This document shows positions 13,151 through 64,000 of a stretch of DNA of 64,000 bases, in pieces (the stretch's first letter is position 1; every line of letters begins with the position of its first letter). The DNA comes from Patescibacteria group bacterium (lineage in GTDB: Bacteria; Bacteroidota; Ignavibacteria; Kapaibacteriales; Kapaibacteriaceae). Both the position numbers and the translations under genes were made by a program. The notes beneath the pieces are model-generated. The model was not told the DNA's origin, did not search any database, and was given only the letters and a program-made list of their open reading frames with translations. The DNA lies in the NCBI GenBank assembly GCA_044376225.1, contig JBILLF010000002.1, positions 24,192 through 88,191 on the forward strand, read 5' to 3'.

Positions 13151-13153
13151 CCG

Positions 13154-14143: not shown

Positions 14144-14175
14144 AACTGGGGCAGGTGAAAATGATGCGAACCCGG

Positions 14176-17268: not shown

Positions 17269-17278
17269 GTGCTGTTGT

Positions 17279-17857: not shown

Positions 17858-17945
17858 TTCGTTACATTTTTTTGGTATCGCAAGAGGTGTTTTCCATCAT
17901 ATTTGTGCTGACTCTTCCTCTTTTGAACACGATCCATCCACGGTC

Positions 17946-18968: not shown

Positions 18969-18988
18969 TAAAGGTTACGTAGAGTGAT

Positions 18989-19969: not shown

Positions 19970-19989
19970 AGCTACGAATATGTGCAGAA

Positions 19990-20027
19990 AATGAAAAGCC
20001 CCCGACGCTGAAGCGCCGAGGGCTTTA
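19990..20027 (-). terminator. rho-independent terminator candidate for the 20050..24765 gene (minus strand)
   Basis: Hairpin AAAAGCCC...GGGCTTT. Read on the minus strand it is followed by TTTTCATTTTCT. Confidence 0.5.
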
Positions 20028-20049
20028 TGATTGCTACGCTGATAGCGGT

Positions 20050-23000
20050 TTAGCGGACAATCGTGAGGGTCTTCGACAGTACTGTCTCACCAACCGTGAG
20101 CTTGTACATGTATGAACCGCTTGCGACATCCACACCATCTTCACCACGACCATCCCATTCAACTGCATATGGCGTCTGCTGTCCTGCAACAACGTTGTTG
20201 TAGACAGTCTTGACGACATTGCCCATGAGGTCATACACCTCAAGCTTGACCTTCGAGCTTGATGGGATCGTGAATGTGAAGGTTGTCTTTCCAGCCGATG
20301 GATTCGGGAAGCTGCTGTTGAGAGCAACTTCAGAGGCTGAACCGAATTCGACACTGACAATGTTCGAGAAGTTCATCGAACCGCTGGCATCAACTTGACG
20401 CAGACGGTACTCGTACGATGTGCCCGATGTTACATCGGCATCAAAGTACTTGTAGTTCTTGGTCGTGTTAGAGTTTCCAGCACCGTTGACGAATCCTACA
20501 GATTTCCATGGATTCTCGGCGTTCGATGTTTCGTCGGTACATGTGAGAGAAGCCTTGCCAGTGAGATTCGTGACTTCCTTGACTGCGCGGCGCTCAACAT
20601 GGAATCCAACGTTATTCTTCTCACTCGCTGTCTCCCAGAAGATATCGACGCCAGCAGCACGACCACGAGCATCGAAGAAGGACAGTTCAACCGGTGCATT
20701 ATCGCAAGGAACAAAGATTGGCGGATTCGAGAATGAACGGTTGCCGAAGAAAGGACGCAGGAGTGGAATCCACGATCCACGTGTGAAGGTGGCATAACCG
20801 AGGCTCGTTCCCATAGCGTCGAGGTGTGCATAACCAGGGTTACCGATCGTTGGAGTGAATGGTACCCAGTCACCGCTGAAACGCGTCAATTCATATGCAA
20901 AGCGGTTGTCATTGAGCAGCGATCCGGCACGGTTACGCACGCGGAAGTTCTTGTCAACGAGCAGTGAGCGGTTTCCAAGACCGAACGTCGGAACGTCGGA
21001 GTAGAGCGTTGTTACAAGTCCCATACGGGTTTCAGAAGCACCAAGCTCGTAACCTTCCGTACCCATCTGAGCTACCGAAGCCCAATAGTCCCCAGGAGCA
21101 ATAACCACTGGTGTTGCAAGCAGATATGTCACATACTTACCAAACTGGGGCTCTGTAAATGCACCGGTTTCATCTTCACCGCGACGGCGAAGAATCGTCG
21201 AGTTAGCAACACGCTCGTCACCTGGCAGACCGCCTTGGTCACGATACAGAGAGAAGGAGATGTTCAACACGTCCTGGTTGAGTTCTGCCCAGAATGCCTG
21301 ATAGCCAGCGAGTGTGTCCTGTGAGAACAGTGTAAATCGCATTGCGATCTGACCAGAAGCATTACCTGCATCTGCACCGGTACCGTTGTCAACGCCTGCA
21401 GGGAAAGTGCCCCACGTTGAACCAGCCGTGTACTGAACGGTTGGACCGGTCAAGCTCGACTGCCATCCCGATGCACGTGCTCCAAGTGAGTTACCGCCAT
21501 GATTAAGACCCTTACCGGTAATACCCGTGAACTGAAGCTTCGGCACGTCGTTGACCGGATTGCTTGGATTCGTTTCGTAGGCAAACGAAGGACCAAACGT
21601 CATACGGAACATCGTGAACGTAGAGTCGTTCAGCGTGTCAAGGTCGTTGCCAGGGAAGAAGATACGTCCAGTGACCTTGTAGTTACCAGGTGTAGTTGTA
21701 CGGAAGTTGGCATCTGGGAACGGAAGGATCACTTCGCGATTACCAGCTAGCGTTGGAACCGTGATGCTACGGCAATAGATCTGCTGATCTTCATTACCAT
21801 CTGGCTTGATCTGGAGACGAACTGAGAAAGCCGGAGCGGCAATGTTCGTATTGTTCGAAAGCTTCACACGGATAGGCACGCGTGTGGCCTGCGAAGCAGG
21901 AGCCATCGTGTATGGCCAGATCAGCTGGATGTTGCTGAACTCAATGTCTGTGACTTCGTCAGGATAAAGCAGCTTGACGTTGTCGATGAAGAAGGCATCT
22001 TCGTCATCCGACGGCGCTGGTGGCTGCGAGTTCATAACACAGCTCGCACGAATGCGGAAGCGGAAGTTACGTGCGCCTTCGTTGACCCAGCGAAGAACGG
22101 TGTCAGGAATAGGAACAGTGATCTTGTAGTACTCTGCATCCTTACCATCGTCAAACAGATCTTCGCGAAGACCACCGAGTGGTGGGGTAGCTGTGTTGTT
22201 CAGCTGCAGGTTGTAGTCAGCAAGGTCGAAACCACGGGCTGATCCACCACCACCCCAGATTCGGAATGGTTGCATGTACGCTGTTCCGCGTGACTGGTAG
22301 TCAAGAATCCAGTTCTGGATGTTCGTGATTCCCGTGATACCATCGCTTGAAGGGCGAGCAAACTCAACGAATACTTGGTCTGGATTGCGGTAGCCCGGCG
22401 TAAAGCCATTTACCGCAAGCATGTTGACGCGGTGCTCAGGTCCGATGAGACGATTGTCCGAGAAACCGCGACCAATGTTTGTAAGCTTACCAGAACGCTG
22501 ATAGGAGATCGACAGAACGGCGCGCTTGCGGCGGACGAGGTTGATTGGGAACGAGCGGATCTCATCGCCACCGTACTGACCTGCTGGAGGAATGTCCACG
22601 TTAGCAAGGTTCCAACGGTTGAGCTTGATAACTGGTGACTTCAAACGGAAGATGTCTGCATTGGCTGCAGCATACTCACCCCGTGGTGGTGGTGGGTTGT
22701 TTGTTGCCTCGTCACCATCAACAACTTCAGCTTCAATGTTCACCCACTTGAGGACCGAAGGCATAGCAGCACCACCGATGAGGTGGTACTCGTTGACGTC
22801 ATCAGAGAACGATGTGAGACGACGCATCGAGAAGATGCGGATACTAGTTGTATCGTCAAACGGCCACTGATCACCGATAGGCTGATTGAGAGAGTCCTTC
22901 GGCTCAGCAATCACCGTTGTAAGGAGACGACCGATTTGGTCATCGATAAACGGATTTGGCTCAAACGGCGGGAAGATCACCTTGATGAACTCGTACGGAA

Positions 23001-50904: not shown

Positions 50905-52065
50905 TTAGTTGACGCTGTCCCCTTCGCGAAGATTCTCGGAGGGGTGCTGCACAATGTGGTCTCCGACATCGAGTCCAGACGCGACAACCGTCATTAGCGC
51001 GCTCCGTGCACCGAGTGTCACAGAGCGCCGGCGAATGATGCCGGCTTCAACCACCAGCACGTGCCACTGATCAGCATCTCGAAGAAGCGCACCGAGTGGG
51101 ATACAAAGCGCATGTTCTGATCTCTCCGTAATGATGGCCGCTTCGACGCGATATCCGTCACCGAGCCCAGGTGGACGGGCCGCGATATCGGCGATAACAT
51201 TGACGCGCTGTTCCTCGATTCCGAGCGAGCTTACCCGTGTGCGGGCCGACGGTTCAACGCGTCGTACCGTTGCCCGGACGATGGAGTTCCCTCCCCATCC
51301 ATCGAGGTTGACGCTCATGCCTGGACGGATCTTGACGGCATCGATACTGAGTACATCGATCACCACTTCAGCCTGAGACGTGTCGCCTAGTTCTACGATC
51401 GGTGTACCGGCCAGGACGGTGCGTTCGGACTGTTCGTGACACCTTAGCACAACGCCTGATGTTGGTGCACGCACAGAAACACGCTGACCGGGTCGGCCGG
51501 CTAGAATGGCCAGGACGGCTTTGGATTCAAAGCCTATGGCCCGCTCACGCTCGCGCAGGGCATCGGCCTCACGTTGCAGCTGCTCATAGGCATCGCGGGC
51601 ATTCTCGGCCTGCTCGCGCGTAACGGCTCCGGCCAGCTCAAGCCGACTCAGTCGCTCGGTTCTGCGTCTAGCCTGTTCTATCAGGGGGCTCATTGCAGCC
51701 AGGCGCTGATGGATCTCAGCCGATCCGGCACTGATGGAGCCGAAACGAGCCCGGGCTTCGGAACGCTGACGCTCGTCAAGCTCGGGTGGAATGATGGTGC
51801 CGATGATCTGCCCGGCAATGACGCTATCACCGGGTTCGACGCTGAGTCGTTCGAGGACGCCGGTAGCCGGCATGGCCACAACGAACCGTTCGCGAGCGCG
51901 CACAATACCGTCGGCCTCGACCGTGGTCTCAAGATCCTGCTGTCGAACCACTACCTGCTCAACACGAATTGGTCGTGGCAGCAACGCTACGATGATCGCG
52001 GCAATGACGACAACGATCGTGATGATCCAGCCAAGATATCGGGGACGTCGTAGCTTCATCATCAC
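50905..52065 (-). CDS. HlyD/MacA-family periplasmic adaptor (membrane fusion protein)
   Basis: N-terminal TM anchor, long coiled-coil (ENARDAYEQLQREADALRERE) and a beta-barrel/lipoyl-like C-terminal region. It starts at the stop of the ABC permease. Confidence 0.7.
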   Translation of the reverse strand: MMMKLRRPRYLGWIITIVVVIAAIIVALLPRPIRVEQVVVRQQDLETTVEADGIVRARERFVVAMPATGVLERLSVEPGDSVIAGQIIGTIIPPELDERQRSEARARFGSISAGSAEIHQRLAAMSPLIEQARRRTERLSRLELAGAVTREQAENARDAYEQLQREADALRERERAIGFESKAVLAILAGRPGQRVSVRAPTSGVVLRCHEQSERTVLAGTPIVELGDTSQAEVVIDVLSIDAVKIRPGMSVNLDGWGGNSIVRATVRRVEPSARTRVSSLGIEEQRVNVIADIAARPPGLGDGYRVEAAIITERSEHALCIPLGALLRDADQWHVLVVEAGIIRRRSVTLGARSALMTVVASGLDVGDHIVQHPSENLREGDSVN

Positions 52066-54425
52066 TCACGGGATTTGAGAACGGCGATCATGTCAAGTCG
52101 GGCTATCCGACGACGGATAAACCCGCCGGTTACGAGCGCAACGGCGAGGATCAGTGCGGCACTGATGCCGAGGTTGCGCAGACTGATGGCAAAGGGAAAT
52201 CGAAACAGATCTGTAGCAATCAGCGAAGGCATCCACATCGACCACATGATGCCCCCTAGCATGCCGATCGGCAAAGCAACGAGCGTGATCACGAATTGTT
52301 CGCCCAATAGGATCACAGTAACGTCACGATTCGAGAAGCCAAGCACGCGCAGGCTTGCAAGTTCATTGCCCCGCTCGCTAAGTGCAATGCGTGCGTTGTT
52401 AAACACCACGCCGAAGGCGATGAGCGAGGCAAAGAACACAATGTAGAAATTTGAAATGTCCATGAATTGCAGATAGCTCTCATCGAAGCTACGCATGGCC
52501 CGCTCGCGCATCACCACACCTGACATTGACGGGAGCCTCTTGACGGCGCGGTAAAACTCCCCCATCAGTGCCGGATCGATCTGCAGGTATGCTCCACTGA
52601 TGCTCCCTTGCTCGCGCAGCATTGCACGCAGCACACCTGGTGAGACATAGACCTGCACGCCCATCATGTCGTCGATCAGTGACGTGACAGCCACCGTGAA
52701 TGATCGACGTTCTTCGTCGATCTGACGCAGCCCGATTGTGTCACCAATGCCAAACCCCATCATTTTGGCCATGTACGCCGAACAGGCCACACCGTAGGTT
52801 GGGACCGGCTGAGGCCACCCCTTCATCGACGTCACGCGATGGAGCTCCGGGTACTCAACACCGGCCACTATGGCGGTGCGCTTGGTGGTGGAGCCGACGA
52901 TCACATCCACAGGGATCGCACGAAAGGGTTCGACAGACATTACTCCAGGTAAAGCCGCCAGATCATGCACTGCCCGGTGCGAGCGCGGCGTCATGAATGT
53001 TACCATGGCATCCTCACGAGCAACGCGATGGAACTGTACCGTCAGAATTGTCTCAAACATTTCCATGAAGTAGCGTCCAAGAACAAGCAACGACATTGCC
53101 AGGGCGATCGCCAGTAGGCTCACCACCGCACGCACCGGCCGACGCAGCACGTTGCGAACGATCATCGACGTTAGGGGGCTGAAACGGCGTGTAAGACCGC
53201 TGCGTTCGAGCAGCCCGCCGCGATACGACCGCGGTGCTTCGGGTCGCATGGCCTCTGCCGGTGGCAACCGCACGATGGCTCGAACCGCCGCTATCGCGCC
53301 AAGTGAAGCCGCCAGAAGACTCAGCAGAATAGCGCCAAGGATCACGAGAACAGGTACGTCAAACTCCAGCACCGGTAGCCGGTAGAAGTCTAGGTACATC
53401 CTGACAAGCCTGACACCGATGAAAATGCCACCGGCCAGGCCCAGCACGGTGCCACCGGCTACGGCCACCACGGCAAAGCCCACGTAGTGTAGCGAGATAC
53501 GTCCATTGCCGTACCCAAATGCCTTGAGAATGGCGATCGTCGAACGCTGCGTAGTAACGAAACGTAGCAGCGAGATATTCAGCAGAAAGATCGCCACACC
53601 GAGAAAGATCGCCGGAACGATAAGGGCCGTGAGCGACAGCTGTCGGATCTCATCACTGAGGAACTTGTGCGACTGCTGATCGTCTCGCGCAATGGCACCG
53701 GTACTTCCATACGGACGAAGCAGCACATCAAGCCGGTCAATGATTCCTGTCTTTGACGCGCCCGGTACCAGGTCGAATGAAGCGCTGTTCCAGGCACCCG
53801 ACAAGTCATAGAGCGTACCAAGAGCCCCCTGCTCCATCCACATCACCGCAAATCGCTTGTTGTCGATCATCATCGAGCCCGGAACAAGCTCCAACACCCA
53901 TTCCGGAGAGAGTGCCGTGGCAACGATGCGAAGGGGCTTCCAGCGCCCATTGATCACGGCATTGACCGTGTCACCCTCATGAAATCCATTGGCCAGTGCA
54001 AAGGCGTAAGAGACGATCACTTCGTCATCAGTGTGGGGCGTGAGCCAGCGACCGGAGCGCAGGCTCAGCCGATTGACAGGGGGCTGACCTGATCCAGGGA
54101 TTCCGGTGATGATGCCCGTTGCCGGCTCTGCCAGACCAGGGATATCGATCACCACATTGGCCACAACACGAAGGTCGACGTTCGTTACGCCGCTGATCTG
54201 AGCCAGACGCGAGCGCAGCTCAAGTGGCGCCCGGCGCACCTGCGCCCAGACGTCACCAAAGTTCGTTTCGTCGTAGTAGGTGCGCTGCGACAGCACCAGC
54301 GAAGCATGCGTGCTTTGGAAGGCAACGTAATTGGCAATACCGGCGGCGATCACCAGAATGATGGCGATCATCTGGCCGCGCATGTGACGGACCTCGCGCA
54401 GGAGCTTGATGGTCAAAATCGACAC
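52062..54425 (-). CDS. ABC transporter permease with duplicated FtsX domains (YbbP/MacB-like, about 790-820 aa)
   Basis: Two FtsX-type 4-TM modules separated by large periplasmic domains. Start uncertain (GTG about 54425 or ATG 54383). It is 3' of the ATPase gene. Confidence 0.7.
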   Translation of the reverse strand: MSILTIKLLREVRHMRGQMIAIILVIAAGIANYVAFQSTHASLVLSQRTYYDETNFGDVWAQVRRAPLELRSRLAQISGVTNVDLRVVANVVIDIPGLAEPATGIITGIPGSGQPPVNRLSLRSGRWLTPHTDDEVIVSYAFALANGFHEGDTVNAVINGRWKPLRIVATALSPEWVLELVPGSMMIDNKRFAVMWMEQGALGTLYDLSGAWNSASFDLVPGASKTGIIDRLDVLLRPYGSTGAIARDDQQSHKFLSDEIRQLSLTALIVPAIFLGVAIFLLNISLLRFVTTQRSTIAILKAFGYGNGRISLHYVGFAVVAVAGGTVLGLAGGIFIGVRLVRMYLDFYRLPVLEFDVPVLVILGAILLSLLAASLGAIAAVRAIVRLPPAEAMRPEAPRSYRGGLLERSGLTRRFSPLTSMIVRNVLRRPVRAVVSLLAIALAMSLLVLGRYFMEMFETILTVQFHRVAREDAMVTFMTPRSHRAVHDLAALPGVMSVEPFRAIPVDVIVGSTTKRTAIVAGVEYPELHRVTSMKGWPQPVPTYGVACSAYMAKMMGFGIGDTIGLRQIDEERRSFTVAVTSLIDDMMGVQVYVSPGVLRAMLREQGSISGAYLQIDPALMGEFYRAVKRLPSMSGVVMRERAMRSFDESYLQFMDISNFYIVFFASLIAFGVVFNNARIALSERGNELASLRVLGFSNRDVTVILLGEQFVITLVALPIGMLGGIMWSMWMPSLIATDLFRFPFAISLRNLGISAALILAVALVTGGFIRRRIARLDMIAVLKSRE

Positions 54426-54429
54426 AGCA

Positions 54430-55155
54430 TCACCATGAGAGTTCACGGGGCTGCTTGCGCTGCGTCGGGGAATACTCCTGCACGATCGTACCACTGCGCA
54501 TACGCAGCACCCGGTCGGCCATGTCCGCAATACTAGCGTTGTGTGTGATCAGCGCTACCGTCGCGTCGAGTTCACGATGTACCAGGTCGATCACCTCCAG
54601 CACGATGATGCCTGTCTCGAAGTCCAATGCGCCCGTGGGCTCGTCACAGAGAAGAACGTCTGGACGTTTGGCAATGGCACGGGCGATGGCAACCCGCTGC
54701 TGCTCGCCCCCTGACATCTGAGACGGGAAGTGATGCATGCGGTCGGCCAAGCCCACGAGGTCAAGTGCCGTTCGTGCATCCATCGGCTCTTCAACGAGAT
54801 CGGTCACCAGCTGCACGTTCTCAAGTGCCGTCAGACTTGGGATGATGTTGTAGAACTGGAACACGAAGCCCACCGAGTGACGTCGGAACCTGGTCAGCGC
54901 TGCCTCATCAGCATGAGTCAGATCCGTCTCCCGATACCGAACGCTGCCGGATGTGGGCACATCGAGCCCACCGAGGATGTTCAGCAAGGTGGACTTACCA
55001 CTTCCCGAAGCACCGAGGATCACCAGGAGCTCGGACTCATGGATTGTCAGCGACACATCGCTAAGGGCTACAACCTCTAGCTCGCCCATCGAATAGGATT
55101 TCGTGACGTGGCTGACGTCAAAAAGGACAGGGCGGCCGGAGTGATCCTGATGCAT
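54430..55155 (-). CDS. ABC transporter ATP-binding protein (MacB/LolD/YbbA-like)
   Basis: Walker [10 protein letters not shown], signature [14 protein letters not shown] and Walker [12 protein letters not shown]. Confidence 0.9.
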
Positions 55156-55182: not shown

Positions 55183-55962
55183 CTACATCGAGTGAATCTG
55201 CACGTCACCATGATGGTCGATGGCCACATAGGTCGATGGCTTATCGGTCCAGCATCCGGAGTTGACGTACGTGACATCATCGATTTGCTTGATCCCGGGC
55301 ATGTGCGTGTGACCGCAATGAACCACCTGAGCCTGATGCCTGCGGCGTCCATGTCCAGCTGCATCGTGTGCAATCTTGTCGCTCAGGCGCAGCCACTTCT
55401 TGCTGGTGCGCTTTACCCAGCGGCTCACGCGGTGGTGCGGATCGATGCGCTGCAGCAGCAGATACAGCCATGAGGCGATGGCCGTGATGGTCACATGTTT
55501 GGTGATCCATCGGTCAAACTGGTGTCCATGAATGGCCAGATGACGCTTGCCCGCAACCGTAAAGACGATCTCTTCATGCACCGGTACTCCCAGAAGGTGC
55601 GTCAGGATCTCGGCCACACCACCGTCATGATTGCCCACCACCCAGACCACGTCTACGCCCCGACGTGGATTTGACAGACGTCGCAACAGCGACAGAACCT
55701 TCCAGTCATCCTTGGTAAGACGCCTGAAGTTGAGATCGTCAAAGACATCGCCGTTGAGGATCAGGCGTTTGTAGATGTGCGTCTTGAGCATCATCACCAG
55801 CGCCTTTGAGCGGGCAACATCCGAACCCAGGTGCAGGTCGGAGATGATGATGGTGTCCACGTCAAGAGGCACGGCAAGATGAAGGTCAATCCGCTCGCGC
55901 TCACTGACCTCGACGTCTACGATGATATCATCATCGATGTCATAGTCGGCGACGGAACGCAT
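55183..55962 (-). CDS. calcineurin-like metallophosphoesterase (LpxH-like UDP-2,3-diacylglucosamine diphosphatase family)
   Basis: IISDLHLG, GDVFD and GNHD are metallophosphoesterase motifs I-III. Start uncertain (55962 or 55998). Confidence 0.6.
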   Translation of the reverse strand: MRSVADYDIDDDIIVDVEVSERERIDLHLAVPLDVDTIIISDLHLGSDVARSKALVMMLKTHIYKRLILNGDVFDDLNFRRLTKDDWKVLSLLRRLSNPRRGVDVVWVVGNHDGGVAEILTHLLGVPVHEEIVFTVAGKRHLAIHGHQFDRWITKHVTITAIASWLYLLLQRIDPHHRVSRWVKRTSKKWLRLSDKIAHDAAGHGRRRHQAQVVHCGHTHMPGIKQIDDVTYVNSGCWTDKPSTYVAIDHHGDVQIHSM

Positions 55963-56704
55963 GGATGTGCTGTCGGAAATATCCCGTGGGGAAGTCATCA
56001 TGGAGTCCGTATCGAGTAGGCTTTTCCGTTTCTGGTAAATAGGCAGTAGCAAACAGCCAGTCCCAGATGGCAAGCTTGGTCGAGAAGTTGCGATTATGCG
56101 AACGGGGATCGTCGGCATGGTGCCAGCGGTGCATCTCCGGACCGTTGATCACGCGTTGCAGACGTCCCGTGCGCACGTCAATATTCGAATGGATGTACAT
56201 GCCCCAAATGGCATCAATGGCCCCCTTTATCACGGCTACCTCCGGTGAGGCCAGCAGCACGATCGGGAGGAACTCTACCGTCTGGTTGATGAGGATCTCA
56301 AGACTGTGCGAGCGTGATCCGCTAAGCCAGTCCACATCGGTGGTTGAATGATGAGCCTCGTGAATTCGCCACAGCAGTGCATTCGAGTGTTGCCAGCGAT
56401 GGAACCAGTAGATGTAAAAGTCGTGCACCAGAAGAAACACCACCATCTGCGCCGCCAGTGGCTGCGAGCGCAGAAACACAAGGCGGCTCAGGCCGCTCTG
56501 CTGGTCAATCCAGCCGATGAGGGCAAAGATCACCAGACCCAGCACGTAGCTCTGGGCGATGGCGTACAGGCCCAGATCGGTCATGAACCCACTCCTGAAA
56601 AGGGGCTGACCCGACGTGTAGGGAAACAGCCGTTCAAGGACGACCAGCAGGCCCCCTGCTAGGATCACCATCGTGGTGCAGACTATTGCCAGCGACAGCT
56701 CCAT
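55940..56704 (-). CDS. fatty acid hydroxylase superfamily integral-membrane di-iron enzyme (sterol-desaturase-like)
   Basis: Multiple TM segments plus three histidine boxes (HRWQH, HEAHH, HRWHH). Confidence 0.7.
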   Translation of the reverse strand: MELSLAIVCTTMVILAGGLLVVLERLFPYTSGQPLFRSGFMTDLGLYAIAQSYVLGLVIFALIGWIDQQSGLSRLVFLRSQPLAAQMVVFLLVHDFYIYWFHRWQHSNALLWRIHEAHHSTTDVDWLSGSRSHSLEILINQTVEFLPIVLLASPEVAVIKGAIDAIWGMYIHSNIDVRTGRLQRVINGPEMHRWHHADDPRSHNRNFSTKLAIWDWLFATAYLPETEKPTRYGLHDDFPTGYFRQHIHAFRRRL

Positions 56705-56707
56705 ACC

Positions 56708-57607
56708 TTAGGCTTCTCCTCGGACCGATGACGAAACACGACGAAGCTTCGACCGCACGCCCAGCTCACTGTCATACAGGCGCTTGACACCGTCGCCCAG
56801 TGAGCGCTCGATCTCGCGGATATCGCGAATCATGCGCTCGAGTCCGGCAATCTCTACGCTGGCGGCTTGGTCAGTTCCCCACATAGCCCGGTCGAGAGTG
56901 ATATGTCGCTCAACGAACCGCGCACCGAGGGCAACGGCGGCATACGTCGTAGCAAGCCCCACCTCGTGCCCGCTATAGCCGATGATGCGGTTCGGGTAGC
57001 GAGCCTGTAGGGTATTGATCATCCGGAGGTTGAGTTCATCCGAGGCACAGGGATAGGCCGAAGTTGCGTGGGCGATCAGCAGGTTCGCATCGGTCAGTGA
57101 TTCGACAGCCTGATCGATTTCCTCCGTCGTGGACATGCCGGTGGAGATCATCAGCGGCTTGCCTGTTGATGCCATGACACGAAGTAGTCCAAGGTCAGTT
57201 AGTGATGCCGATGCTGCCTTGTAAAAAGGCACATCAAAGTTTGCCTCCATAAAGGCCAGCGCCTCCTCATCCCAGCATGACACAGTCCAGTCGATACCAA
57301 GATCCCGGCACAGTGCGTCAATAAGGCGATAGTCCTCTTCGTCGAATTCCACCTTGTAGCGATAGTCGATGTAGGTCATGCGTCCCCACGGCGTGTCACG
57401 CTCGATCATCCATTGATCACGCGGCACACACAGCTCCGGGGTACGCTTCTGAAACTTCACACAAGACGCGCCGACGCGTGCCGCGCCGCGAATCATCTCA
57501 CGGGCGATATCAAGAGATCCGTTATGGTTGATGCCAATCTCGGCGATGACATAGACTGGCTGATCTGCGCCAATGGCTGGCTTGGTCGTCGATGGTTGAA
57601 TGCTCAT
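56708..57607 (-). CDS. NeuB-family PEP-condensing synthase (sialic/ulosonic acid synthase-like), short form lacking a C-terminal SAF domain
   Basis: VYVIAEIGINHNGSLDIAREMIRGAARVGASCVKFQ is the NeuB TIM-barrel N-terminal signature. At 299 aa it lacks the C-terminal antifreeze-like domain. Confidence 0.65.
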   Translation of the reverse strand: MSIQPSTTKPAIGADQPVYVIAEIGINHNGSLDIAREMIRGAARVGASCVKFQKRTPELCVPRDQWMIERDTPWGRMTYIDYRYKVEFDEEDYRLIDALCRDLGIDWTVSCWDEEALAFMEANFDVPFYKAASASLTDLGLLRVMASTGKPLMISTGMSTTEEIDQAVESLTDANLLIAHATSAYPCASDELNLRMINTLQARYPNRIIGYSGHEVGLATTYAAVALGARFVERHITLDRAMWGTDQAASVEIAGLERMIRDIREIERSLGDGVKRLYDSELGVRSKLRRVSSSVRGEA

Positions 57608-57684
57608 GCGAAGCTCCCTGAAAGATGATTGGTTCCCATCATGAATGCTGTAGAGTCGTCAGGTCAATTGCCGGTTGGCGCAGG

Positions 57685-58494
57685 TCACCAGGCCGTCCAG
57701 CCGCCGTCGACAAGAAGATTGTGTCCGGTCATGTAGGCCGAGGCATCGCTGGCAAGAAACACGAGCGCACCGCGATAGTCCGTTGGGTCAGCCATGCGTC
57801 CAAGCGGCGTGCGCTCGGAATAGAGTTTCTGGAAATGCTCGTTCTGATTGTTGGCCACACCGCCCGGTGAGAGCGTATTGGCACGTACACCTGACCCAGC
57901 CCAGTATGTAGCCAGAAACTTGGTCAGCATCACTACCGCCCCCTTCGAGGCTGGATAGGCAGCACTCTTGTAGAACGACTGTGAGCCATCGGGACGCTGG
58001 TAGAGCCGCTGATCTGGGGCCACAACGCCGTAGGTCGAGGCGATGTTGATGATCGAGCCTCTTCTGGTCTCGGCCATATGCGTGCCGATGATCTGGCTTG
58101 TCAGGAACACTCCGGTGACGTTGACATCAAGCACCTTGCGAAACAGCGTCAGCGGATAGCTCTCAAAGGCCGACGGTGCGCCCCCGGAAAGGGGTGCTTC
58201 GACCATGTCATTCATGGCGGCATTATTGACCAGAATATCAATGTGTCCATGTTCGCGCAGGACCATCTCGCGTAGATCGACAATTCCCTCGGCATCGGTA
58301 ACATCGAGTGCAACACCCATGTGGTGAGCACCCAGTTCCTGCGCCACGTCGCGAGCCGCATGACCATCGAGGTCACAGGCCACAACCGTTGCACCGGCAG
58401 CGGCGAGAGCCACGCAGTGCTGACGTCCCAATAGACCCGCTGCACCAGTGACCACCGCTACGCGGTCTTCAAGCGAAAAGATGTTTTGCATCAC
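57685..58494 (-). CDS. short-chain dehydrogenase/reductase (SDR)
   Basis: VVTGAAGLLG (TGxxxGxG), NNAA, and catalytic YxxxK (YPASK). Confidence 0.8.
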   Translation of the reverse strand: MMQNIFSLEDRVAVVTGAAGLLGRQHCVALAAAGATVVACDLDGHAARDVAQELGAHHMGVALDVTDAEGIVDLREMVLREHGHIDILVNNAAMNDMVEAPLSGGAPSAFESYPLTLFRKVLDVNVTGVFLTSQIIGTHMAETRRGSIINIASTYGVVAPDQRLYQRPDGSQSFYKSAAYPASKGAVVMLTKFLATYWAGSGVRANTLSPGGVANNQNEHFQKLYSERTPLGRMADPTDYRGALVFLASDASAYMTGHNLLVDGGWTAW

Positions 58495-59822
58495 TTGTGC
58501 TCCATCGCAACACGCGGCTTAGTGTTGAAGGCACCCGTCTTGCGGAATACCGGCTCAACGCATCGGCCGCGCAGTGCCAATGGCAGTGTTCCCATGCGGA
58601 TGTGTTCATGTAGCATCGGCAATACGTCGGCATAGACATCAAGCGTGAACTCGATGTCTGCAAGCGTGTGTGCCGCACTCAGCGTGTGAAAGCCATTCCA
58701 TAGAATTCCGTACCGGAGCAGTTCCTGCTGCACAAACGAACGCATCATCAGCGGGTCCGCAGACGCGTCCGAAAAGGCCATCATTGTGCGGGCCCCAAGC
58801 CCCTTGACCGTGGCGTAACTCATGTCGTTGGAGGCAAGGATCAAGCGAATACCCTCGCGGAGTTCATCACCCAATAGCTCCATTCGCTGCAGAACCTCAC
58901 CATCGAGCAGGCGGTGTAACGTGGCCTTGGCAGCGGCAAGTGATAGTGCTTCGCCACCGAAGGTCGTAAAGAAGAATACATCCTTCTCGAGCAGACGCAT
59001 GATCTCGGCCTTGCCCGTCAGCACTGATAGCGGCATGCCATTGGCAACGGCCTTTGAGAAGCAGGCAAGGTCAGCCTGAACGCCAAATCGCATCTGCGCA
59101 CCGCCCGGAGAGATCCGAAAGCCAGTCCACATTTCGTCGAAGATCAAGACGATACCACGCTGATTGCAGAGTTCGCGCAGCTCCTGAAGGAAGTCCTCCT
59201 TCGGTTCGTCAAAGACCATCGGCTCAAGGATGATTGCCGCTGTATCAGAATCGAGCGCATCATAGACGCTCTGCATGTCGTTATAGCTGAAGGTGTAGGT
59301 CAGGTCTCGCACAGCCTGTGGGATTCCCATGGCGCGGTCCGTGGTGGCGATGTACCAGTCGTGCCAGCCATGATACCCGCAGCACAGCACCGTAGAACGT
59401 CCTGTATAGGCACGAGCCAATCGCACCGCAGCCGATGTGACATCGCATCCTGTCTTGGAAAAGCGCACATGCTCGGCATTGGGAACAATACCATGGATAA
59501 GCTCGGCAACTTCTACTTCCAGTGGGTGCATCAGCGAAAACGTTATGCCGTCATGAAGCTGCTGCTCGATGGCCCGATTGACGCCGGCATCGGCATAGCC
59601 AAGAATGAGCGGACCGATCGCCATGGCGTAATCGAGGTAACGGTTATCGTCAACATCCCAGAGGTAAGCCCCCTTTCCGCGTTGGGCAAAGACAGGCGCT
59701 ACGCCGCGCACGTGCTGACCAGGTCCTTTGGCGAGGGTCTGCGTCTGTGCCGGGATGAGTCGCTCGGCTCGCTTAAGAAGCTCTTGGGATCGCTGGATCG
59801 GTGGATATGTTGGCTCACGCAT
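58491..59822 (-). CDS. class III PLP aminotransferase (glutamate-1-semialdehyde aminomutase-like)
   Basis: GSA-AT-like fold with the PLP lysine in the FSKAVANGMP context. The length (about 440 aa) fits. It overlaps the flanking genes by 4-8 nt. Confidence 0.7.
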   Translation of the reverse strand: MREPTYPPIQRSQELLKRAERLIPAQTQTLAKGPGQHVRGVAPVFAQRGKGAYLWDVDDNRYLDYAMAIGPLILGYADAGVNRAIEQQLHDGITFSLMHPLEVEVAELIHGIVPNAEHVRFSKTGCDVTSAAVRLARAYTGRSTVLCCGYHGWHDWYIATTDRAMGIPQAVRDLTYTFSYNDMQSVYDALDSDTAAIILEPMVFDEPKEDFLQELRELCNQRGIVLIFDEMWTGFRISPGGAQMRFGVQADLACFSKAVANGMPLSVLTGKAEIMRLLEKDVFFFTTFGGEALSLAAAKATLHRLLDGEVLQRMELLGDELREGIRLILASNDMSYATVKGLGARTMMAFSDASADPLMMRSFVQQELLRYGILWNGFHTLSAAHTLADIEFTLDVYADVLPMLHEHIRMGTLPLALRGRCVEPVFRKTGAFNTKPRVAMEHK

Positions 59823-60783
59823 GGGTAACCTCGCTTTGTGGTGAAAGGGGCTGGCTGACGCCATGAACGATATCGGCAAAGCGCTCGCGGATGCGATGAG
59901 CCAGTGCCGGGGCGCTCATGCGCTCATTCTCAAGCACGTCGTTAAGACGTCCAGGCCGGAACCACGTCGGAAAGCCAATAGTCAGCACCGGCGCAGCAAT
60001 ACGATTCGCCATGAGCGTCTCGGCAACGATGCTGGCAAGGCCCCCTGTGAGAAAATGATCTTCGACGGTAACAACGAGCTCGCTTGTTCGGGCGGCGTCG
60101 AGGATTGCTTCAACGTCAACGGGCTTGAGCGTGCGCATATTCACTACGCGCACATGCATGTCTTCCCTACGGAGCTCGTCGGCCGCTTCGATACACAGCC
60201 TTGTCATGAAGCCATACGTAAGGATCGTTACGTTCGGGCGGTGCAGCGAAGCACCACGAACAGCCACTGCCCTACCGGGCTCGAATGGCACTCTGTCGAT
60301 CGGCAGCTCCGGAGCATTGAGATAGCGGACGTACCAGGGACGACGGGATTCGAGCAGCACGCGCATACCATCGACAAACTCCTGTTCGTCGCAGGGACAG
60401 AACACACCTACGTTCGGCAGGCCTCGCATGATCGATACGTCCTCAATAGCCTGGTGAGTGGGACCATTACCGTCACTGAGAATGCCTGCAACCATGCCCA
60501 CCATGATCACCGGGGCGTTGGCAATAGCTACATCATCGCGGATGAATTCAAAGGCTCTCATCGTGATGAAGGCCGCCAGCGCATGCGTCACCACGACCCG
60601 ACCGCGCACGGCCATTCCGGCTGCCATGCCGATCATTGTTTGCTCAGCAATACCGACGTCTATAAATCGGTCGCCCAGCATCGGCGGTACAGTTCGCATA
60701 TGTCCACGGTTTTCGGCCGTGATCACCACGAGGCGCTCATCGCGCGATGCTGTATCTAGGAGCAGAGTTTCGTAAGCGTTCAT
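59815..60783 (-). CDS. transketolase, C-terminal (pyrimidine-binding) subunit of a split transketolase
   Basis: GIAEQTMIGMAAGMA...GPTHQ are motifs of the transketolase Pyr and C-terminal domains. It is a separate ORF immediately after the N-terminal subunit. Confidence 0.75.
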   Translation of the reverse strand: MNAYETLLLDTASRDERLVVITAENRGHMRTVPPMLGDRFIDVGIAEQTMIGMAAGMAVRGRVVVTHALAAFITMRAFEFIRDDVAIANAPVIMVGMVAGILSDGNGPTHQAIEDVSIMRGLPNVGVFCPCDEQEFVDGMRVLLESRRPWYVRYLNAPELPIDRVPFEPGRAVAVRGASLHRPNVTILTYGFMTRLCIEAADELRREDMHVRVVNMRTLKPVDVEAILDAARTSELVVTVEDHFLTGGLASIVAETLMANRIAAPVLTIGFPTWFRPGRLNDVLENERMSAPALAHRIRERFADIVHGVSQPLSPQSEVTHA

Positions 60784-61637
60784 CGTACGATCAAGGTTTC
60801 TGAGGTGAGTGTTGCACGCGCATGGCCATTGAGCTCTTCGATGAGAGCCTGTGTCTCTTCGGCACTGAAGTTGCAGAACCAGCGGTCGGCTCTCTCTTCG
60901 ATACTTGGCAGCCCCTTACCGCGACGTGTATCGGCAATGACCACGGTGGGACTTCCCGAGTTCAGTTGCAACGAGCTGAAGCACGCGTCAAGCGAATTCA
61001 TATCATGGCCATTGGCGTAAACAGCATTCCAGCCGAAGGCCCGAAACTTCTCGGGAAGGGGCTCAAGCGGCACCAGCTCTTCGGTGCGCACATTTGCCTG
61101 GAAGTGATTACGATCTATCACGGCGATGAGATTGTCCAGACTCAGCGCCGAGGCTACCAGACAGGCCTCCCAGACGCTTCCCTCGTTGAGTTCACCATCG
61201 CCCATAATGACCACAACGCGTGTCGATAGGCCCTTCATCCGAGCATCAAGGGCCATTCCCATACCGACGCTGAGAAGATGACCCAGCGAGCCGGAGTGAA
61301 ACTCCACCCCCGAAACATTGCGGTTTGGATGCCAATAGAGATCGTCGTTCACCGAAAGGTGGTGCTTAAGCCGTTCTTTGCTGATGAAGCCTCGCTCGGC
61401 CAGCACACCATAGAGAGCCGGCACGTCGTGCCCCTTGGAGAGTAGCAGAATGTCGCGGTCTTCGGCGTGCACTGTCAGCGGCGAGATGTTCAGGAAGCGC
61501 CAGTACAGGTATACGAGCAGATCCGCGCACGACAGAGACGCTCCAATGAAGCAGCCGCCGTCGGTGGACATCCGCACGATGTGCTCGCGCACACGAAGGG
61601 CGGCGCTTTGGAGTTCTTCGACCTCGGCAGACGTCAT
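60780..61637 (-). CDS. transketolase, N-terminal (thiamine-diphosphate-binding) subunit
   Basis: SKGHDVPALYGVL...GSLGHLLSVGMGMAL...VIMGDGELNEGSVWEA is the ThDP-binding motif. Confidence 0.75.
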   Translation of the reverse strand: MTSAEVEELQSAALRVREHIVRMSTDGGCFIGASLSCADLLVYLYWRFLNISPLTVHAEDRDILLLSKGHDVPALYGVLAERGFISKERLKHHLSVNDDLYWHPNRNVSGVEFHSGSLGHLLSVGMGMALDARMKGLSTRVVVIMGDGELNEGSVWEACLVASALSLDNLIAVIDRNHFQANVRTEELVPLEPLPEKFRAFGWNAVYANGHDMNSLDACFSSLQLNSGSPTVVIADTRRGKGLPSIEERADRWFCNFSAEETQALIEELNGHARATLTSETLIVR

Positions 61638-62425
61638 GAAGCGATCCTCGGTGGTGATTGCAAATAGCTTTGATACCAGCTCTGTCCACGCAACTGCTGA
61701 TTGATGAGGTCGATCTCGGGATGCGCGTCAAGAAACGCCAGAACGTCCTCGCACCGAAAGCGAGGGTTCGCCCAGTAAAGCGCGTCATAAACGGCCCGGA
61801 TCAGAACGTAATCTTCGGGATGATCGATGGTCCAGCGGTGGCGTGCCTCGAGCAACTGACCATCTGGACGCTCCACATTCCGCATGGTGATGTATGGGTT
61901 ATTCTCCCACATCCATGGAGTCGTATGCTCGCGTTCATGCGGTCTACTGGCCGTTGCCCAGGCCCGGTGAAGAGCAAGCATCGTCATCACTTCGACGTCA
62001 TTCCCATCAGGCCATGTGCCGGGGTGCAGATTACTGGCGTAGTCCACCCACGGATACTCCAGCAGGAAGGACTCAATGACCATGTCGATCACGGCCGGGT
62101 CGATGAGTGGACAGTCAGTCGGGATCTTGACAACCACATCGGCATCAACCATCTGAGCTGCCCAGAAATGCCGGTCAAGCAGATCCGTAGGATGCCCGCG
62201 ATAAACACGGTATCCGGCAATGTGGCATAGGTCGGCGATCTCATCGTCTTGAGCAAGCGTGGTGGTGGCCACGATCACATGCTTGGCGTAGCGAGCCATT
62301 GTGACGCGCTCAAGAAAACGAAGAAGAAGGGGCTCTCCGGCAAGTGGCAGCAGGACTTTGCCGGAGAGACGGGTTGACCCCGTGCGAGCCTGGCAGATAA
62401 TGGCCACCTTGGGTTGATGATTCAC
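61634..62425 (-). CDS. CMP-sugar-type cytidylyltransferase (CTP_transf_3; acylneuraminate/Kdo cytidylyltransferase or SpsF/PseF-like)
   Basis: KVAIICQARTGSTRLSGKVLLPLAGEPLL is the N-terminal nucleotide-binding signature of the SpsF/NeuA/KdsB family. Confidence 0.65.
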   Translation of the reverse strand: MNHQPKVAIICQARTGSTRLSGKVLLPLAGEPLLLRFLERVTMARYAKHVIVATTTLAQDDEIADLCHIAGYRVYRGHPTDLLDRHFWAAQMVDADVVVKIPTDCPLIDPAVIDMVIESFLLEYPWVDYASNLHPGTWPDGNDVEVMTMLALHRAWATASRPHEREHTTPWMWENNPYITMRNVERPDGQLLEARHRWTIDHPEDYVLIRAVYDALYWANPRFRCEDVLAFLDAHPEIDLINQQLRGQSWYQSYLQSPPRIAS

Positions 62426-63432
62426 ACGGCCTCCCGCAGATGATAGGAACGGCGCTCTGGAAGCATCAGACCGCGCTCATGGAGAACTTCTGTGCAGACC
62501 TCGGCGATACTCGCTGCCGAACGTCCGCCATTCTGAATCGGACACATACGGCGCAGCTCCTCCATCGGGAAGTCGCTATAGACTTCCTTGCCTAGGGCAA
62601 TGCCCACGTACACACATGAAGAGAACTTGGTAATGAGTGTCTGGCAATGTGCGATCATCGGATTGATGTCGCGGCCGTGATATACCAGCGCATTAGGAGC
62701 CCAGCGGTCGATCTCGCGTCGTGCACGGTCAACGACCTCGTTCGGATGAAGCTTGAAGATCAGCTGACGTCCATCGGCAATGCGCAGGGCATTGAGTATC
62801 GTTTGACGACGGTCCTCGAGCTTGAATGTCTCGCGCGCGTCGCTGGTGGCAACGAGCACGAAGTCGCTGTGATCGAACGGGACTTCGCGATAGCGCTCAC
62901 AGTTATCGAAGTTTGGGATGCCCGTAACACGCAGTTTGCGACCATCAGCCCCTTTCCGTCGGAAGTGGTCCGCGTAGCCTTCGGATGCCACGCACATGTA
63001 TCGATAGGCATTTGAGAGTCCGAAGGTCGACGTCGAGGCAAGGTATCGTGGCAGACCCAGCTTCATCACCGCACGGTACATGAAGTTCTCGGGATCGGTC
63101 ATGCCCTCCTGCACCAGCACGATCGGACGGTTGCGGATGTTCTGCTGCAACATCAGATCGCTGCAGGTCACCACGAGGTCATAATCGAGCTCGCTGCCAA
63201 ACTCATCGATGCGGCACAGATTAGCGCGCAGCACCTGGCGTGCGCGTTCACGGTGGCGGTTGCCCACAATGGTCCACTCTAGCAGACCGGAGCGTGCAGC
63301 CGCCTCCAAAAGTCCGTCGGCATAGTGCGGGGCAAAGCGGCACTCGTGTTCCGACAGATGACGGGCGATCTCGACCATCATCGTGGTTTGATTTACCGAG
63401 CCGCAGATAAAGAGAATGTTACACCGTTGCAT
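62422..63432 (-). CDS. Capsule_synth (KpsS/KpsC/LpsZ)-like protein, a putative CMP-ulosonic-acid glycosyltransferase; first gene of the operon
   Basis: About 336 aa with a Rossmann-like N-terminus (ILFICGS). The segment LIFKLHPNEV resembles the conserved HP motif of KpsS/KpsC beta-Kdo transferases. Assignment by motif recollection only. Confidence 0.35.
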   Translation of the reverse strand: MQRCNILFICGSVNQTTMMVEIARHLSEHECRFAPHYADGLLEAAARSGLLEWTIVGNRHRERARQVLRANLCRIDEFGSELDYDLVVTCSDLMLQQNIRNRPIVLVQEGMTDPENFMYRAVMKLGLPRYLASTSTFGLSNAYRYMCVASEGYADHFRRKGADGRKLRVTGIPNFDNCERYREVPFDHSDFVLVATSDARETFKLEDRRQTILNALRIADGRQLIFKLHPNEVVDRARREIDRWAPNALVYHGRDINPMIAHCQTLITKFSSCVYVGIALGKEVYSDFPMEELRRMCPIQNGGRSAASIAEVCTEVLHERGLMLPERRSYHLREAV

Positions 63433-63522: not shown

Positions 63523-64000
63523 TTATGGGGCTGACCATTCGCGGCGCGTAAGCACCGACGAATCGGTAAGAGCCTTCATAAAGGCTACGATATCAGCCAT
63601 TTCGGCATCGCTCAGACCAAGCTTCCTTACCCGCTTGTCCTTGTTGTTGAAGGGCGTGCCGCCATCGTTGTAGTGCGCCACCACTTGCTCAAGGGTGGTA
63701 AGGGGCCCCTTATCACTATCACCCGATGCCATGTATGGAGGCGTGAGCGCAACATTGCGCAGCGATGGCGTCTTAAAGAGCCCTTCATCACGCGGATCCT
63801 TCGTCACATTATACCGACCGCGGTCGAAGTAGTGATTGAACAGCCCCACGTTCTGGAAAAGGTCGTTGGTAAGATCCTGTCCGCCGTGGCAGGCCCCGCA
63901 CATGGTCTTGGCACTAAAGAAAAGGTTCATGCCGCGACGTTCCTGATCACTGAGTGCTTGATGTTCACCGAGCAGATATCGATCATACCGACTGTTAGCA
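63523..64000 (-). CDS. di-haem cytochrome c peroxidase (CCP/MauG family), C-terminal part; the gene continues beyond the window end
   Basis: C-terminal haem domain MCGACHGG (CxxCH), followed by FKTPSLRNVALTPPYM, the conserved CCP motif. The reading frame is open to the window edge. Confidence 0.7.
   Translation of the reverse strand, partial: ANSRYDRYLLGEHQALSDQERRGMNLFFSAKTMCGACHGGQDLTNDLFQNVGLFNHYFDRGRYNVTKDPRDEGLFKTPSLRNVALTPPYMASGDSDKGPLTTLEQVVAHYNDGGTPFNNKDKRVRKLGLSDAEMADIVAFMKALTDSSVLTRREWSAP

Follow-up and report, generated by a model that had tools for sequence, protein, structure and literature searches.

A GT-B-fold protein encoded ahead of a putative CMP-amino-ulosonic acid operon is related to TagF-like transferases and lies outside the KpsS/KpsC family

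The question raised by this locus was whether a protein encoded ahead of a putative sugar-acid operon is a transferase of the KpsS/KpsC type and, if not, what it might be. The locus lies in a window of 64,000 nucleotides (nt) from a Kapaibacteriaceae genome (assembly GCA_044376225.1, contig JBILLF010000002.1, positions 24,192 to 88,191 of the forward strand); all positions below are those of the window. A first-pass annotation, made from the sequence alone, had proposed that the minus-strand gene at 62422–63432, here called the target gene, encodes a member of glycosyltransferase family GT107 that transfers a sugar activated with cytidine monophosphate (CMP) to a lipid or glycan. We found that the protein is not a GT107 enzyme. 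At slightly less than an even chance, we propose that it transfers a CMP-activated (amino)ulosonic acid to a membrane lipid, which would make it KpsS-like in function although outside the KpsS family.

The target gene was as predicted in its basic features. The open reading frame (ORF) starts with ATG at 63432, stops with TGA at 62422–62424, and encodes 336 residues, with KLHP at residues 227–230. Because an identical protein is already on record and more than 5500 homologues are found at E ≤ 1e-3, it is a real gene and not a chance ORF. The 4-nt overlap with the cytidylyltransferase gene was also confirmed: GTGA at 62422–62425 is common to the target stop codon and the GTG start (62425) of the next gene, and gene calls for L003, a Nitrospirota locus, and for L085, on a Methylomagnum plasmid, show the same overlap. 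An AlphaFold2 model made with 35 homologues as input (pLDDT 86, pTM 0.84) contained two Rossmann-like alpha/beta domains in a predicted GT-B fold. It opens with beta1 (5–9), a helix (13–24), and beta2 (30–34), in agreement with the Rossmann-like N-terminus claimed earlier. Two sets of relatives are used throughout: 35 close aligned homologues from across phyla, which are 52–76% identical to the window protein, and 33 cluster representatives extending down to ~31% identity.

Membership in GT107 (PF05159, Capsule_synth) was not borne out. The target had no Pfam match at E ≤ 0.01, and none of the 35 homologues matched Capsule_synth even at E ≤ 1; KpsC and KpsS of E. coli UTI89, the positive controls with the same library, gave 350.8 and 303.8 bits. 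Enzymes of GT107 and GT99 have an invariant QXXXD about 30–35 residues before HP, in which the Asp is the covalent nucleophile (PMC10148158). At the expected place the target loop reads A195-T-S-D-A-R-E201, without a Gln. In an alignment with KpsS, QVYND lands on a gap plus A-T of the target, and the sole invariant Q...D of the target family, Q108xxxxD113, is in the other domain and has a different spacing. The HP motif did align: the counterparts of K227-L-H-P230 are KVHP in KpsC from T. dismutans and KHHP in KpsS from E. coli. However, HP is common to CMP-sialic-acid-dependent GT-B enzymes (PMC10148158); it occurs in many CMP-dependent GT-B families and is therefore not diagnostic of GT107. 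Comparison of the family profile by hhalign gave probabilities of 16% with KpsC and 11% with KpsS, versus 43–89% with single TagF-like sequences, and a phmmer search of the PDB reached KpsC (6mgb) only at E 0.46, over the HP region. GT107 is thus refuted at the family level. [quoted passage not shown]

A better match was found in an unrelated GT-B family, the TagF-like proteins. A comparison profile was made from six annotated TagF-like genes from plasmids, one of which was checked and gave 255.9 bits to PF04464. When the 67-sequence profile of the target family was aligned with this 6-sequence profile, the probability was 96.7% (E 3.4e-10) over 148 columns covering residues 140–292. The remaining single-sequence comparisons gave 25% for NeuE, 3.2% for NeuS, and 2.3% for NeuC. 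The family profile, run against PDB sequences, produced a single significant match, the TagF-like polymerase Cps3D (8qoy; E 4e-4), over 'LITxFSS...'. Sub-threshold matches to PF04464 were obtained for 26 of the 35 homologues (best 2e-7); the cut-off of 22.1 bits was not reached in the examples seen, the window protein being unlisted even at E ≤ 1 and representative P0122 scoring 15.4 bits. On these sequence comparisons we conclude that the target family is homologous to the TagF-like CMP-releasing transferases, and that it probably comes from the TagF/TagB lineage.

Matches to other curated models were weaker or more local. The nearest curated families are TIGR04396 ('surface carbohydrate biosynthesis protein'), which looks nonulosonic-acid-transferase-like, and NF046086 ('BFO_1060 family glycosyltransferase'). 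At E ≤ 0.1 they were matched by 35/35 homologues (best 1.7e-12) and 33/35 homologues (best 2.8e-8), respectively. For the window protein the scores were 22.5 bits against a cut-off of 125 and 15.4 bits against a cut-off of 200, and the match was confined to the HP surroundings (residues 219–273). In T. forsythia, BFO_1060 and Tanf_01245 are genetically required for addition of pseudaminic acid (Pse) or legionaminic acid (Leg) derivatives, and both are TagB-like GT-B proteins with the D/E-D/E-G and HP motifs of sialyltransferases (PMC5420450). The epimerase family PF02350 was weakly matched by 35/35 homologues (best 2.5e-6; 14.1 bits vs a cut-off of 30.6). NCBIfam models for diglucosyl-diacylglycerol synthase gave weak matches in 14/35, and weak matches to monogalactosyldiacylglycerol synthase were present as well. 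The NeuC model of NCBIfam was touched by 1/35, and the search for homology to E. coli K1 NeuS (PF07388) yielded, beyond the hhalign value above, one homologue of 35 at E 0.019. In Foldseek comparisons with the PDB, the top ranks were 2-epimerases for UDP-GlcNAc and UDP-ManNAc3NAcA (~1e-9, TM score about 0.5–0.55), followed by HepE, the polymerase Bcs3 of Haemophilus influenzae type b (Hib) with CMP, and TagF (~1e-7).

The conserved residues form a recognizable catalytic signature. Invariant in the 35 homologues were G-S-x-N-Q-T after beta1, L-V-Q108-E109-G110-M-T-D-P after beta4, C-V-A-S-x-G-Y, V-T-G-I-P-N-F-D, T-S-D-x-R-E-T, K-L-H229-P-N-E, S271 of 'LITKFSS', and P-x-Q-N; in the model all of these motifs are at the C-terminal ends of predicted strands. 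S197, D198, R200, E201, and T202 are thus among the invariant residues, and their motif aligns to 'APTFR' of TagF-like proteins. TagF has two essential catalytic histidines, H444 and H584 (PMC5974469). A relaxed hhalign alignment places KLHP at the second of these and Q-E-G at the W-H-G of the first, with low confidence at the latter, so that the target would have H229 but a Glu in place of the first His. In GT-B sialyltransferases, a D/E-D/E-G and HP pair is essential by mutagenesis; in NmB-polyST the pair is E153/G154 and H278/P279, 125 residues apart, and PmST1 contacts the acceptor through the second acidic residue and the CMP phosphate through H311 (PMC2169525). The target has the same pair, E109-G110 and H229-P230, 120 residues apart, except that the first position of the acidic motif is Gln and not Asp or Glu. 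Among the 33 representatives, Q108 is invariant (33/33) and HP, invariant in the 35 closer homologues, is kept in 27. E109 is present in all 27 with HP, and four of the six without HP also lack E109; we therefore argue that E109 and HP act together. By these motifs, the family appears to be a large, unnamed group of TagF-like two-domain transferases with a sialyltransferase-type catalytic motif pair.

The region of lowest model confidence, residues 100–140 (nt about 63013–63135; pLDDT 68–74), is hydrophobic and basic ('FMYRAVMKLGLPRYLASTSTFGL') and is crowded with invariant residues (P114, P128, R129, Y130, T134, G138, and S140). A mobile lid is one possible role, an interfacial element that binds the membrane or the acceptor another.

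Gene order was counted in 80 loci fetched from a scan of one genome per species (85 fetched loci in all); the denominators below and in Table 1 are the loci with enough downstream or upstream sequence. A CTP_transf_3 cytidylyltransferase gene was the next same-strand gene after the target in 80/80. The proteins encoded downstream are consistent with a sugar-acid pathway. For the cytidylyltransferase the best PDB match was 6oew, an uncharacterized cytidylyltransferase (2.4e-38), with KdsB structures next. The aminotransferase matched glutamate-1-semialdehyde aminomutase (GSAM) and sugar C-6' aminotransferases. The NeuB-like protein matched PseI, SpsE, and the 290-residue 6ncs; like 6ncs it has no C-terminal SAF domain, and it scores below the NeuB and PseI equivalog cut-offs. 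A KdsC-like haloacid dehalogenase (HAD) phosphatase gene lies between the short-chain dehydrogenase/reductase (SDR) and NeuB genes in 41/68 loci (e.g., 15888–16388 of L003). The window's clade lacks this HAD gene and has, after the hydroxylase gene, a metallophosphoesterase gene, possibly a non-orthologous replacement for it; 14/59 long loci have neither type of phosphatase. The transketolase pair is missing in ~15/79 loci, for example in Melioribacter and Rosettibacter. The conserved core (cytidylyltransferase, transketolase subunits, aminotransferase, SDR, phosphatase, NeuB, and hydroxylase) includes no other candidate transferase. Forms of this cassette were carried by the window (55183–62425, minus strand), L001, L003, L005–L083, and L085. 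Given a KdsB/NeuA-type partner and a NeuB-type cassette, the operon looks like a pathway from sugar phosphates to a CMP-activated, aminated 3-deoxy-2-ulosonic acid. A search of the available literature for this gene combination, ulosonic-acid lipids, nonulosonic acids of Ignavibacteria, and a glycosphingolipid of Chlorobi yielded no description of the family or the cassette.

We therefore propose the following scheme. Starting from sugar phosphates, the split transketolase, SDR, class-III aminotransferase, phosphatase, and SAF-less NeuB-like synthase would build, aminate, and dephosphorylate a 3-deoxy-2-ulosonic acid, which the KdsB/NeuA-type cytidylyltransferase would then activate with CMP. 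The C-terminal domain of the target protein would bind this CMP-sugar, with H229 of KLHP, the T-S-D-x-R-E loop, and the F-S-S loop holding the CMP phosphate and the HP motif stabilizing it as leaving group. E109 of the Q-E-G loop would be the general base that acts on the acceptor's hydroxyl, so that transfer would be inverting and sialyltransferase-like. As acceptor, a membrane lipid at the cytoplasmic face is most likely, be it a phospholipid, an aminolipid, or another hydroxylated lipid, and the product would then be flipped outward. The data show the predicted fold, the homology to TagF-like proteins, the conserved and co-varying motifs, the strict gene linkage, and the fusions to membrane domains. 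The donor, a CMP-activated 2-keto-3-deoxy sugar acid, is read from gene context (cytidylyltransferase in 80/80 loci and NeuB in 60/66); what each catalytic residue does, the stereochemistry, and a lipid as acceptor are our inferences. The proposal is made because of the family to which the protein belongs, its catalytic motif pair, and its constant place ahead of the operon, to which translational coupling and links to membrane-lipid genes can be added. Thus the functional part of the first-pass annotation, CMP-activated sugar onto a lipid or glycan, was retained and strengthened (an HP-motif GT-B protein, coupled to a KdsB/NeuA-type gene, in a NeuB operon with lipid-gene links), and only its family assignment was lost.

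The links to lipids come from fusions and neighboring genes. In three independent cluster representatives (P0122, P0125, and P0127) an N-terminal LPG_synthase_TM domain (PF03706, MprF-type, flippase-like) is fused to the target domain, and P0126 is a fragment of this architecture. P0130 joins the target domain to a C-terminal FA_desaturase-like membrane domain, and P0124, P0128, and P0149 have N-terminal hydrophobic, transmembrane (TM) anchors. A separate LPG_synthase_TM gene is directly upstream of the target homologue in 5/76 loci (L025, L059, L063, L067, and L035). Next in the Methylomagnum operon come LplT, an N-acyltransferase (PF13444, OlsB-type), and an acyltransferase (PF01553, OlsA-type); L025 continues with MarR, FabG, FabH, a major facilitator superfamily (MFS) transporter, and an acyl-AMP ligase. 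In the window and most Bacteroidota-type loci, an OlsE-like hydroxylase gene follows the NeuB gene. As a separate observation, P0132 has the C-terminal half of a class-III aminotransferase ahead of the target domain, either as a real fusion or through a missed stop codon.

Several points weigh against transfer to a lipid, or against the assignment as a whole. The lipid links are guilt by association and not proof: no more than 5/76 loci have the LPG_synthase_TM neighbor, Nitrospirota versions of the cassette lack the hydroxylase, and the window has neither a flippase-like gene nor a fusion in the target protein itself. The identity of donor and acceptor, like the stereochemistry, is reached indirectly. 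Every match to a named family is below its curated cut-off, and the equivalence of Q-E-G with W-H-G comes from a low-confidence stretch of the relaxed alignment. Because Foldseek places 2-epimerases slightly above TagF and Bcs3, fold alone cannot tell a transferase from an epimerase.

Three other activities were weighed against these data. The acceptor could be a glycan, such as lipopolysaccharide core or O-antigen, a capsule primer, or a protein-linked glycan, and the target a CMP-ulosonic acid glycosyltransferase like the BFO_1060-type Pse/Leg transferases of T. forsythia. The two closest curated families act in surface-carbohydrate contexts, genes of families GT2, GT4, and GT39 precede the Methylomagnum operon, and the window protein lacks both a TM segment and a flippase partner. 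The cassettes of the annotated loci, however, are usually found among unrelated genes, without Wzx/Wzy or polysaccharide export by an ATP-binding cassette (ABC) system, and the fusions and neighbors are of lipid type (LPG_synthase_TM, FA_hydroxylase, FA_desaturase, LplT, and OlsB/OlsA-like acyltransferases). We consider a glycan acceptor unlikely, although the likeliest of the alternatives. A true TagF-like phosphotransferase, which would move X-phosphate from a CDP-activated donor onto a hydroxyl with formation of a phosphodiester and release of CMP, would account for the only statistically solid homology and for the parallel between TGIPNFD, TSDxRE, KLHP, and LITKFSS of the target and GYPRxD, PTFR, HP, and LITDYSS. 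Yet the first of the two histidines that define TagF catalysis is Glu, the PF04464 cut-off is missed in the examples seen, and the partner cytidylyltransferase is of the KdsB/NeuA type (PF02348) in a NeuB operon, whereas genuine TagF genes in loci L092 and L093 adjoin IspD/TarI-type cytidylyltransferases. This activity is improbable.

An NDP-sugar 2-epimerase or hydrolase of the NeuC/WecB type, supplying the aldose for the NeuB-like synthase, is also improbable, slightly more so. The PF02350 matches and the Foldseek ranks speak for it, as does the resemblance, read partly by eye, of 'VTCSDL' and 'VQEGMTDPEN' to the GD and HxEaG/PEE regions of epimerases. Against these stand the profile comparison with E. 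coli NeuC (2.3% vs 43–89% for single TagF-like sequences) and the NCBIfam models (NeuC 1/35 vs TIGR04396 35/35). The acidic residues of NeuC do not coincide column for column with invariant residues of the target: D92 aligns with the Asp of NeuC GD, but the Glu of NeuC 'GGE' is two columns off E109. Flippase- and desaturase-like fusions and TM anchors would not be expected of a soluble epimerase, the pathway would be left without a transferase for its CMP-sugar, and the conserved phosphatase and transketolase point to sugar-phosphate and not UDP-sugar precursors.

The target family is compact but widespread. Among 1.84 billion 50%-identity representatives, only 1146 match it at E ≤ 1e-3 and 174 at E ≤ 1e-30, and at least 586 species in the species scan encode a relative. 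It has no Pfam or NCBIfam model and is called 'hypothetical protein' in every source checked. The fetched loci were mostly from Ignavibacteria (Ignavibacterium, Melioribacter, and Rosettibacter), Kapabacteria, other Bacteroidota/Chlorobi-type metagenome-assembled genomes (MAGs), and Nitrospirota (Thermodesulfovibrionales and Dissulfurispiraceae). A tblastn search against plasmids added a megaplasmid of Methylomagnum ishizawai: the whole cassette is present at 11992–22533 of pRS11DPr1 (NZ_AP019784.1; locus L085), a 274-kb plasmid of this gammaproteobacterial methanotroph, which is a sign of horizontal transfer between phyla. Cultured carriers are Melioribacter, Rosettibacter primus, Ignavibacterium album, and M. 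ishizawai. Six divergent representatives (P0155, P0156, P0160, P0168, P0172, and P0176; 31–38% identity) lack HP, and the four of them that also lack E109 have QN or QD for QE; these may be inactive or re-purposed paralogues. No second, HP-less paralogue was found in the 85 fetched loci.

The features of the window are listed in Table 1. Two of the annotated starts need comment. The aminotransferase ORF opens with TTG at 59879, inside the transketolase gene; ATG at 59822, which gives 443 residues, was taken as the likely start because it avoids the transketolase overlap and matches the lengths of homologues (443–448 residues). The metallophosphoesterase ORF shares 179 nt with the hydroxylase gene, and its true start is probably downstream of 56118. 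The hydroxylase matched the OlsE model NF052566 at 6.5e-35, below the cut-off.

Table 1 Features of the target gene, its cassette, and the adjoining exporter (window positions)
Feature	Position	Strand	Evidence
Target gene, 336-residue GT-B-fold protein of an unnamed family	62422..63432	-	ORF; no Pfam match; AlphaFold2 model; homologues; TagF-like profile
Q108-E109-G110, directly after beta4 of N-terminal domain; E109 is proposed catalytic base	63103..63111	-	Invariant in 35/35
T196-S-D-A-R-E201, after first strand of C-terminal domain	62830..62847	-	Counterpart of TagF 'PTFR', at the place of KpsC/KpsS QxxxD
K227-L228-H229-P230 (HP motif), after beta strand of C-terminal domain	62743..62754	-	Sequence read (reverse complement AAG CTT CAT CCG); invariant in 35 homologues
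K269-F-S-S272 in 'LITKFSS', counterpart of TagF-like 'LITDYSS'	62617..62628	-	Cps3D (8qoy) E 4e-4; hhalign
KdsB/NeuA-type (SpsF-like) cytidylyltransferase, 263 residues	61634..62425	-	PF02348 1.9e-19; sub-threshold KdsB models
Split transketolase, N-terminal (thiamine diphosphate-binding) subunit	60780..61637	-	PF00456 6.9e-28; 64/79 loci
Split transketolase, C-terminal subunit	59815..60783	-	PF02779 + PF02780; 58/75 loci
Class-III aminotransferase (GSA-aminomutase-like)	58491..59822	-	PF00202 4.5e-50; 68/71 loci
SDR	57685..58494	-	PF13561 + PF00106; 62/68 loci
NeuB-family phosphoenolpyruvate (PEP)-condensing ulosonic acid synthase, 299 residues	56708..57607	-	PF03102 1.7e-70; 60/66 loci
Membrane di-iron fatty-acid/lipid hydroxylase (OlsE-like)	55940..56704	-	PF04116 5.6e-30; 39/61 loci
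Metallophosphoesterase	55183..56118	-	PF12850 + PF00149; 8/59 loci, window's clade only
ABC ATPase of MacB/LolCDE-type exporter	54430-55155	-
FtsX-type permease of exporter, 822 residues	52062-54530	-
HlyD-type adaptor of exporter	50905-52065	-

The MacB/LolCDE-type exporter genes lie directly after the cassette on the same strand (50905–55155). The ATPase and permease genes hold this position in the closest relatives (L005–L007, L009, and L010), and the exporter may export the cassette product. Besides a MacB-type exporter, the part of the window from 30.8 to 55.2 kb contained nothing but housekeeping genes when serine palmitoyltransferase and other lipid genes were sought there. On the other side of the target gene, 90 nt away and on the same strand, is the end of a cytochrome gene (63523–63930 and beyond) that is cut by the window end at 64000; what remains is a C-terminal fragment with a CxxCH (CGACH) haem-binding motif. 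Inspected by eye, the 'FKTPSLRNVALTPPYM' stretch is similar to proteins of the di-haem cytochrome c peroxidase/MauG kind; a Pfam search of the fragment gave no match at 1e-5. One weak terminator-like hairpin (63504–63488) lies between the cytochrome and target genes, and a scan for promoters and terminators near the target gave sites no more numerous than in shuffled sequence. In L025, a Thermochlorobacteriaceae MAG, an opposite-strand N6/N4 DNA methylase gene (11272–11952) is inserted between the target homologue and the cytidylyltransferase gene; no other locus has the pair split, contig-truncated loci excepted, and the remaining sugar pathway is not adjacent in L025.

Knowledge of transferases for CMP-activated sugar acids beyond sialic acid and Kdo is scant, and with each newly recognized family have come tools for glycoengineering and for deducing the surface chemistry of bacteria from their genomes. 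The target family is locked to a complete and equally unstudied biosynthetic cassette. We regard it as possible, but doubtful, that an undescribed glycosyltransferase family, with a TagF scaffold and a sialyltransferase-type Glu/His pair, heads an undescribed pathway of 7–9 genes for an amino-ulosonic acid and thus makes a new class of acidic amino-glycolipid in Ignavibacteria, Kapabacteria, Nitrospirota, and some methanotrophs. Among such lipids might be the aminoglycosphingolipid of Chlorobium limicola, whose sugar we take to be of the neuraminic-acid type. The existence of that lipid is cited in PMC11762602. If the lipid reading is true, a class of membrane lipid has been overlooked in environmentally abundant Ignavibacteria, Kapabacteria, and Nitrospirota, and a phosphotransferase scaffold (TagF) can be converted to a glycosyltransferase by a swap of the catalytic base. 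The cultured carriers make the function of the family directly testable, and M. ishizawai is a tractable organism for the pathway.

Comparison with known systems places the target between several of them. KpsS, which acts on phosphatidylglycerol, and KpsC are like the target in the HP motif, in linkage to a KdsB-type CMP-sugar synthetase, and in the predicted attachment of a CMP-activated ulosonic acid to a membrane lipid. They differ in having PF05159 (0/35 in the target family) and the QXXXD nucleophile motif, and in a highly modified beta-Kdo GT fold where the target has an ordinary GT-B architecture; their mechanism is double displacement, whereas that of the target is predicted to be inverting. 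The TagF/TagB-like CDP-glycerol glycerophosphotransferases (PF04464; S. epidermidis TagF, A. pleuropneumoniae Cps3D, and Hib Bcs3) have in common with the target a GT-B-like fold, the loops GxPxxD, (P)T-x-R-D/E, HP, and LIT-x-[FY]-S-S, and a cytidine-nucleotide donor with CMP as leaving group, which for the target is predicted. The target is much shorter (336 residues), is below the Pfam cut-off, and has Q-E-G for W-H-G at the first catalytic His. Its partner is a KdsB/NeuA-type and not a TagD/TarI-type cytidylyltransferase; therefore its donor is probably a CMP-glycoside and not a CDP-alcohol. The BFO_1060 family (Tanf_01245/TFUB4_00887, NF046086) and TIGR04396, the best-scoring curated families, are TagB-like GT-B proteins that have both sialyltransferase motifs and act with CMP-nonulosonic acids, but they are ~100 residues longer and act on a protein-linked glycan, whereas the context of the target points to a lipid. 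GT-B sialyltransferases (GT38 polysialyltransferases, GT52, and GT80 PmST1) likewise have an acidic residue plus Gly after an N-domain strand, HP ~120–125 residues on, and a CMP-ulosonic acid donor, as predicted for the target; the target differs in the Gln at the first acidic position and has no detectable homology to E. coli NeuS. The UDP-GlcNAc 2-epimerases (PF02350; WecB and NeuC) are the best global fold matches, with weak profile matches over residues 145–258, but the target has a TagF-type FSS loop in place of the DSGG-QEE nucleotide loop, and its relatives are fused to membrane domains. The logic of the cassette presumably resembles that of the aminoDAHP branch of rifamycin biosynthesis, with its oxidoreductase, transaminase, phosphatase, split transketolase, and PEP-condensing enzyme. 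Finally, in MprF the lysyl-phosphatidylglycerol synthase domain is fused C-terminally to a flippase TM domain. Its synthase domain is unrelated to the target catalytic domain, and the window protein itself is unfused, but three target relatives have the same order, with the catalytic domain C-terminal to PF03706; this architecture suggests addition of a head group in the cytoplasm, followed by flipping.

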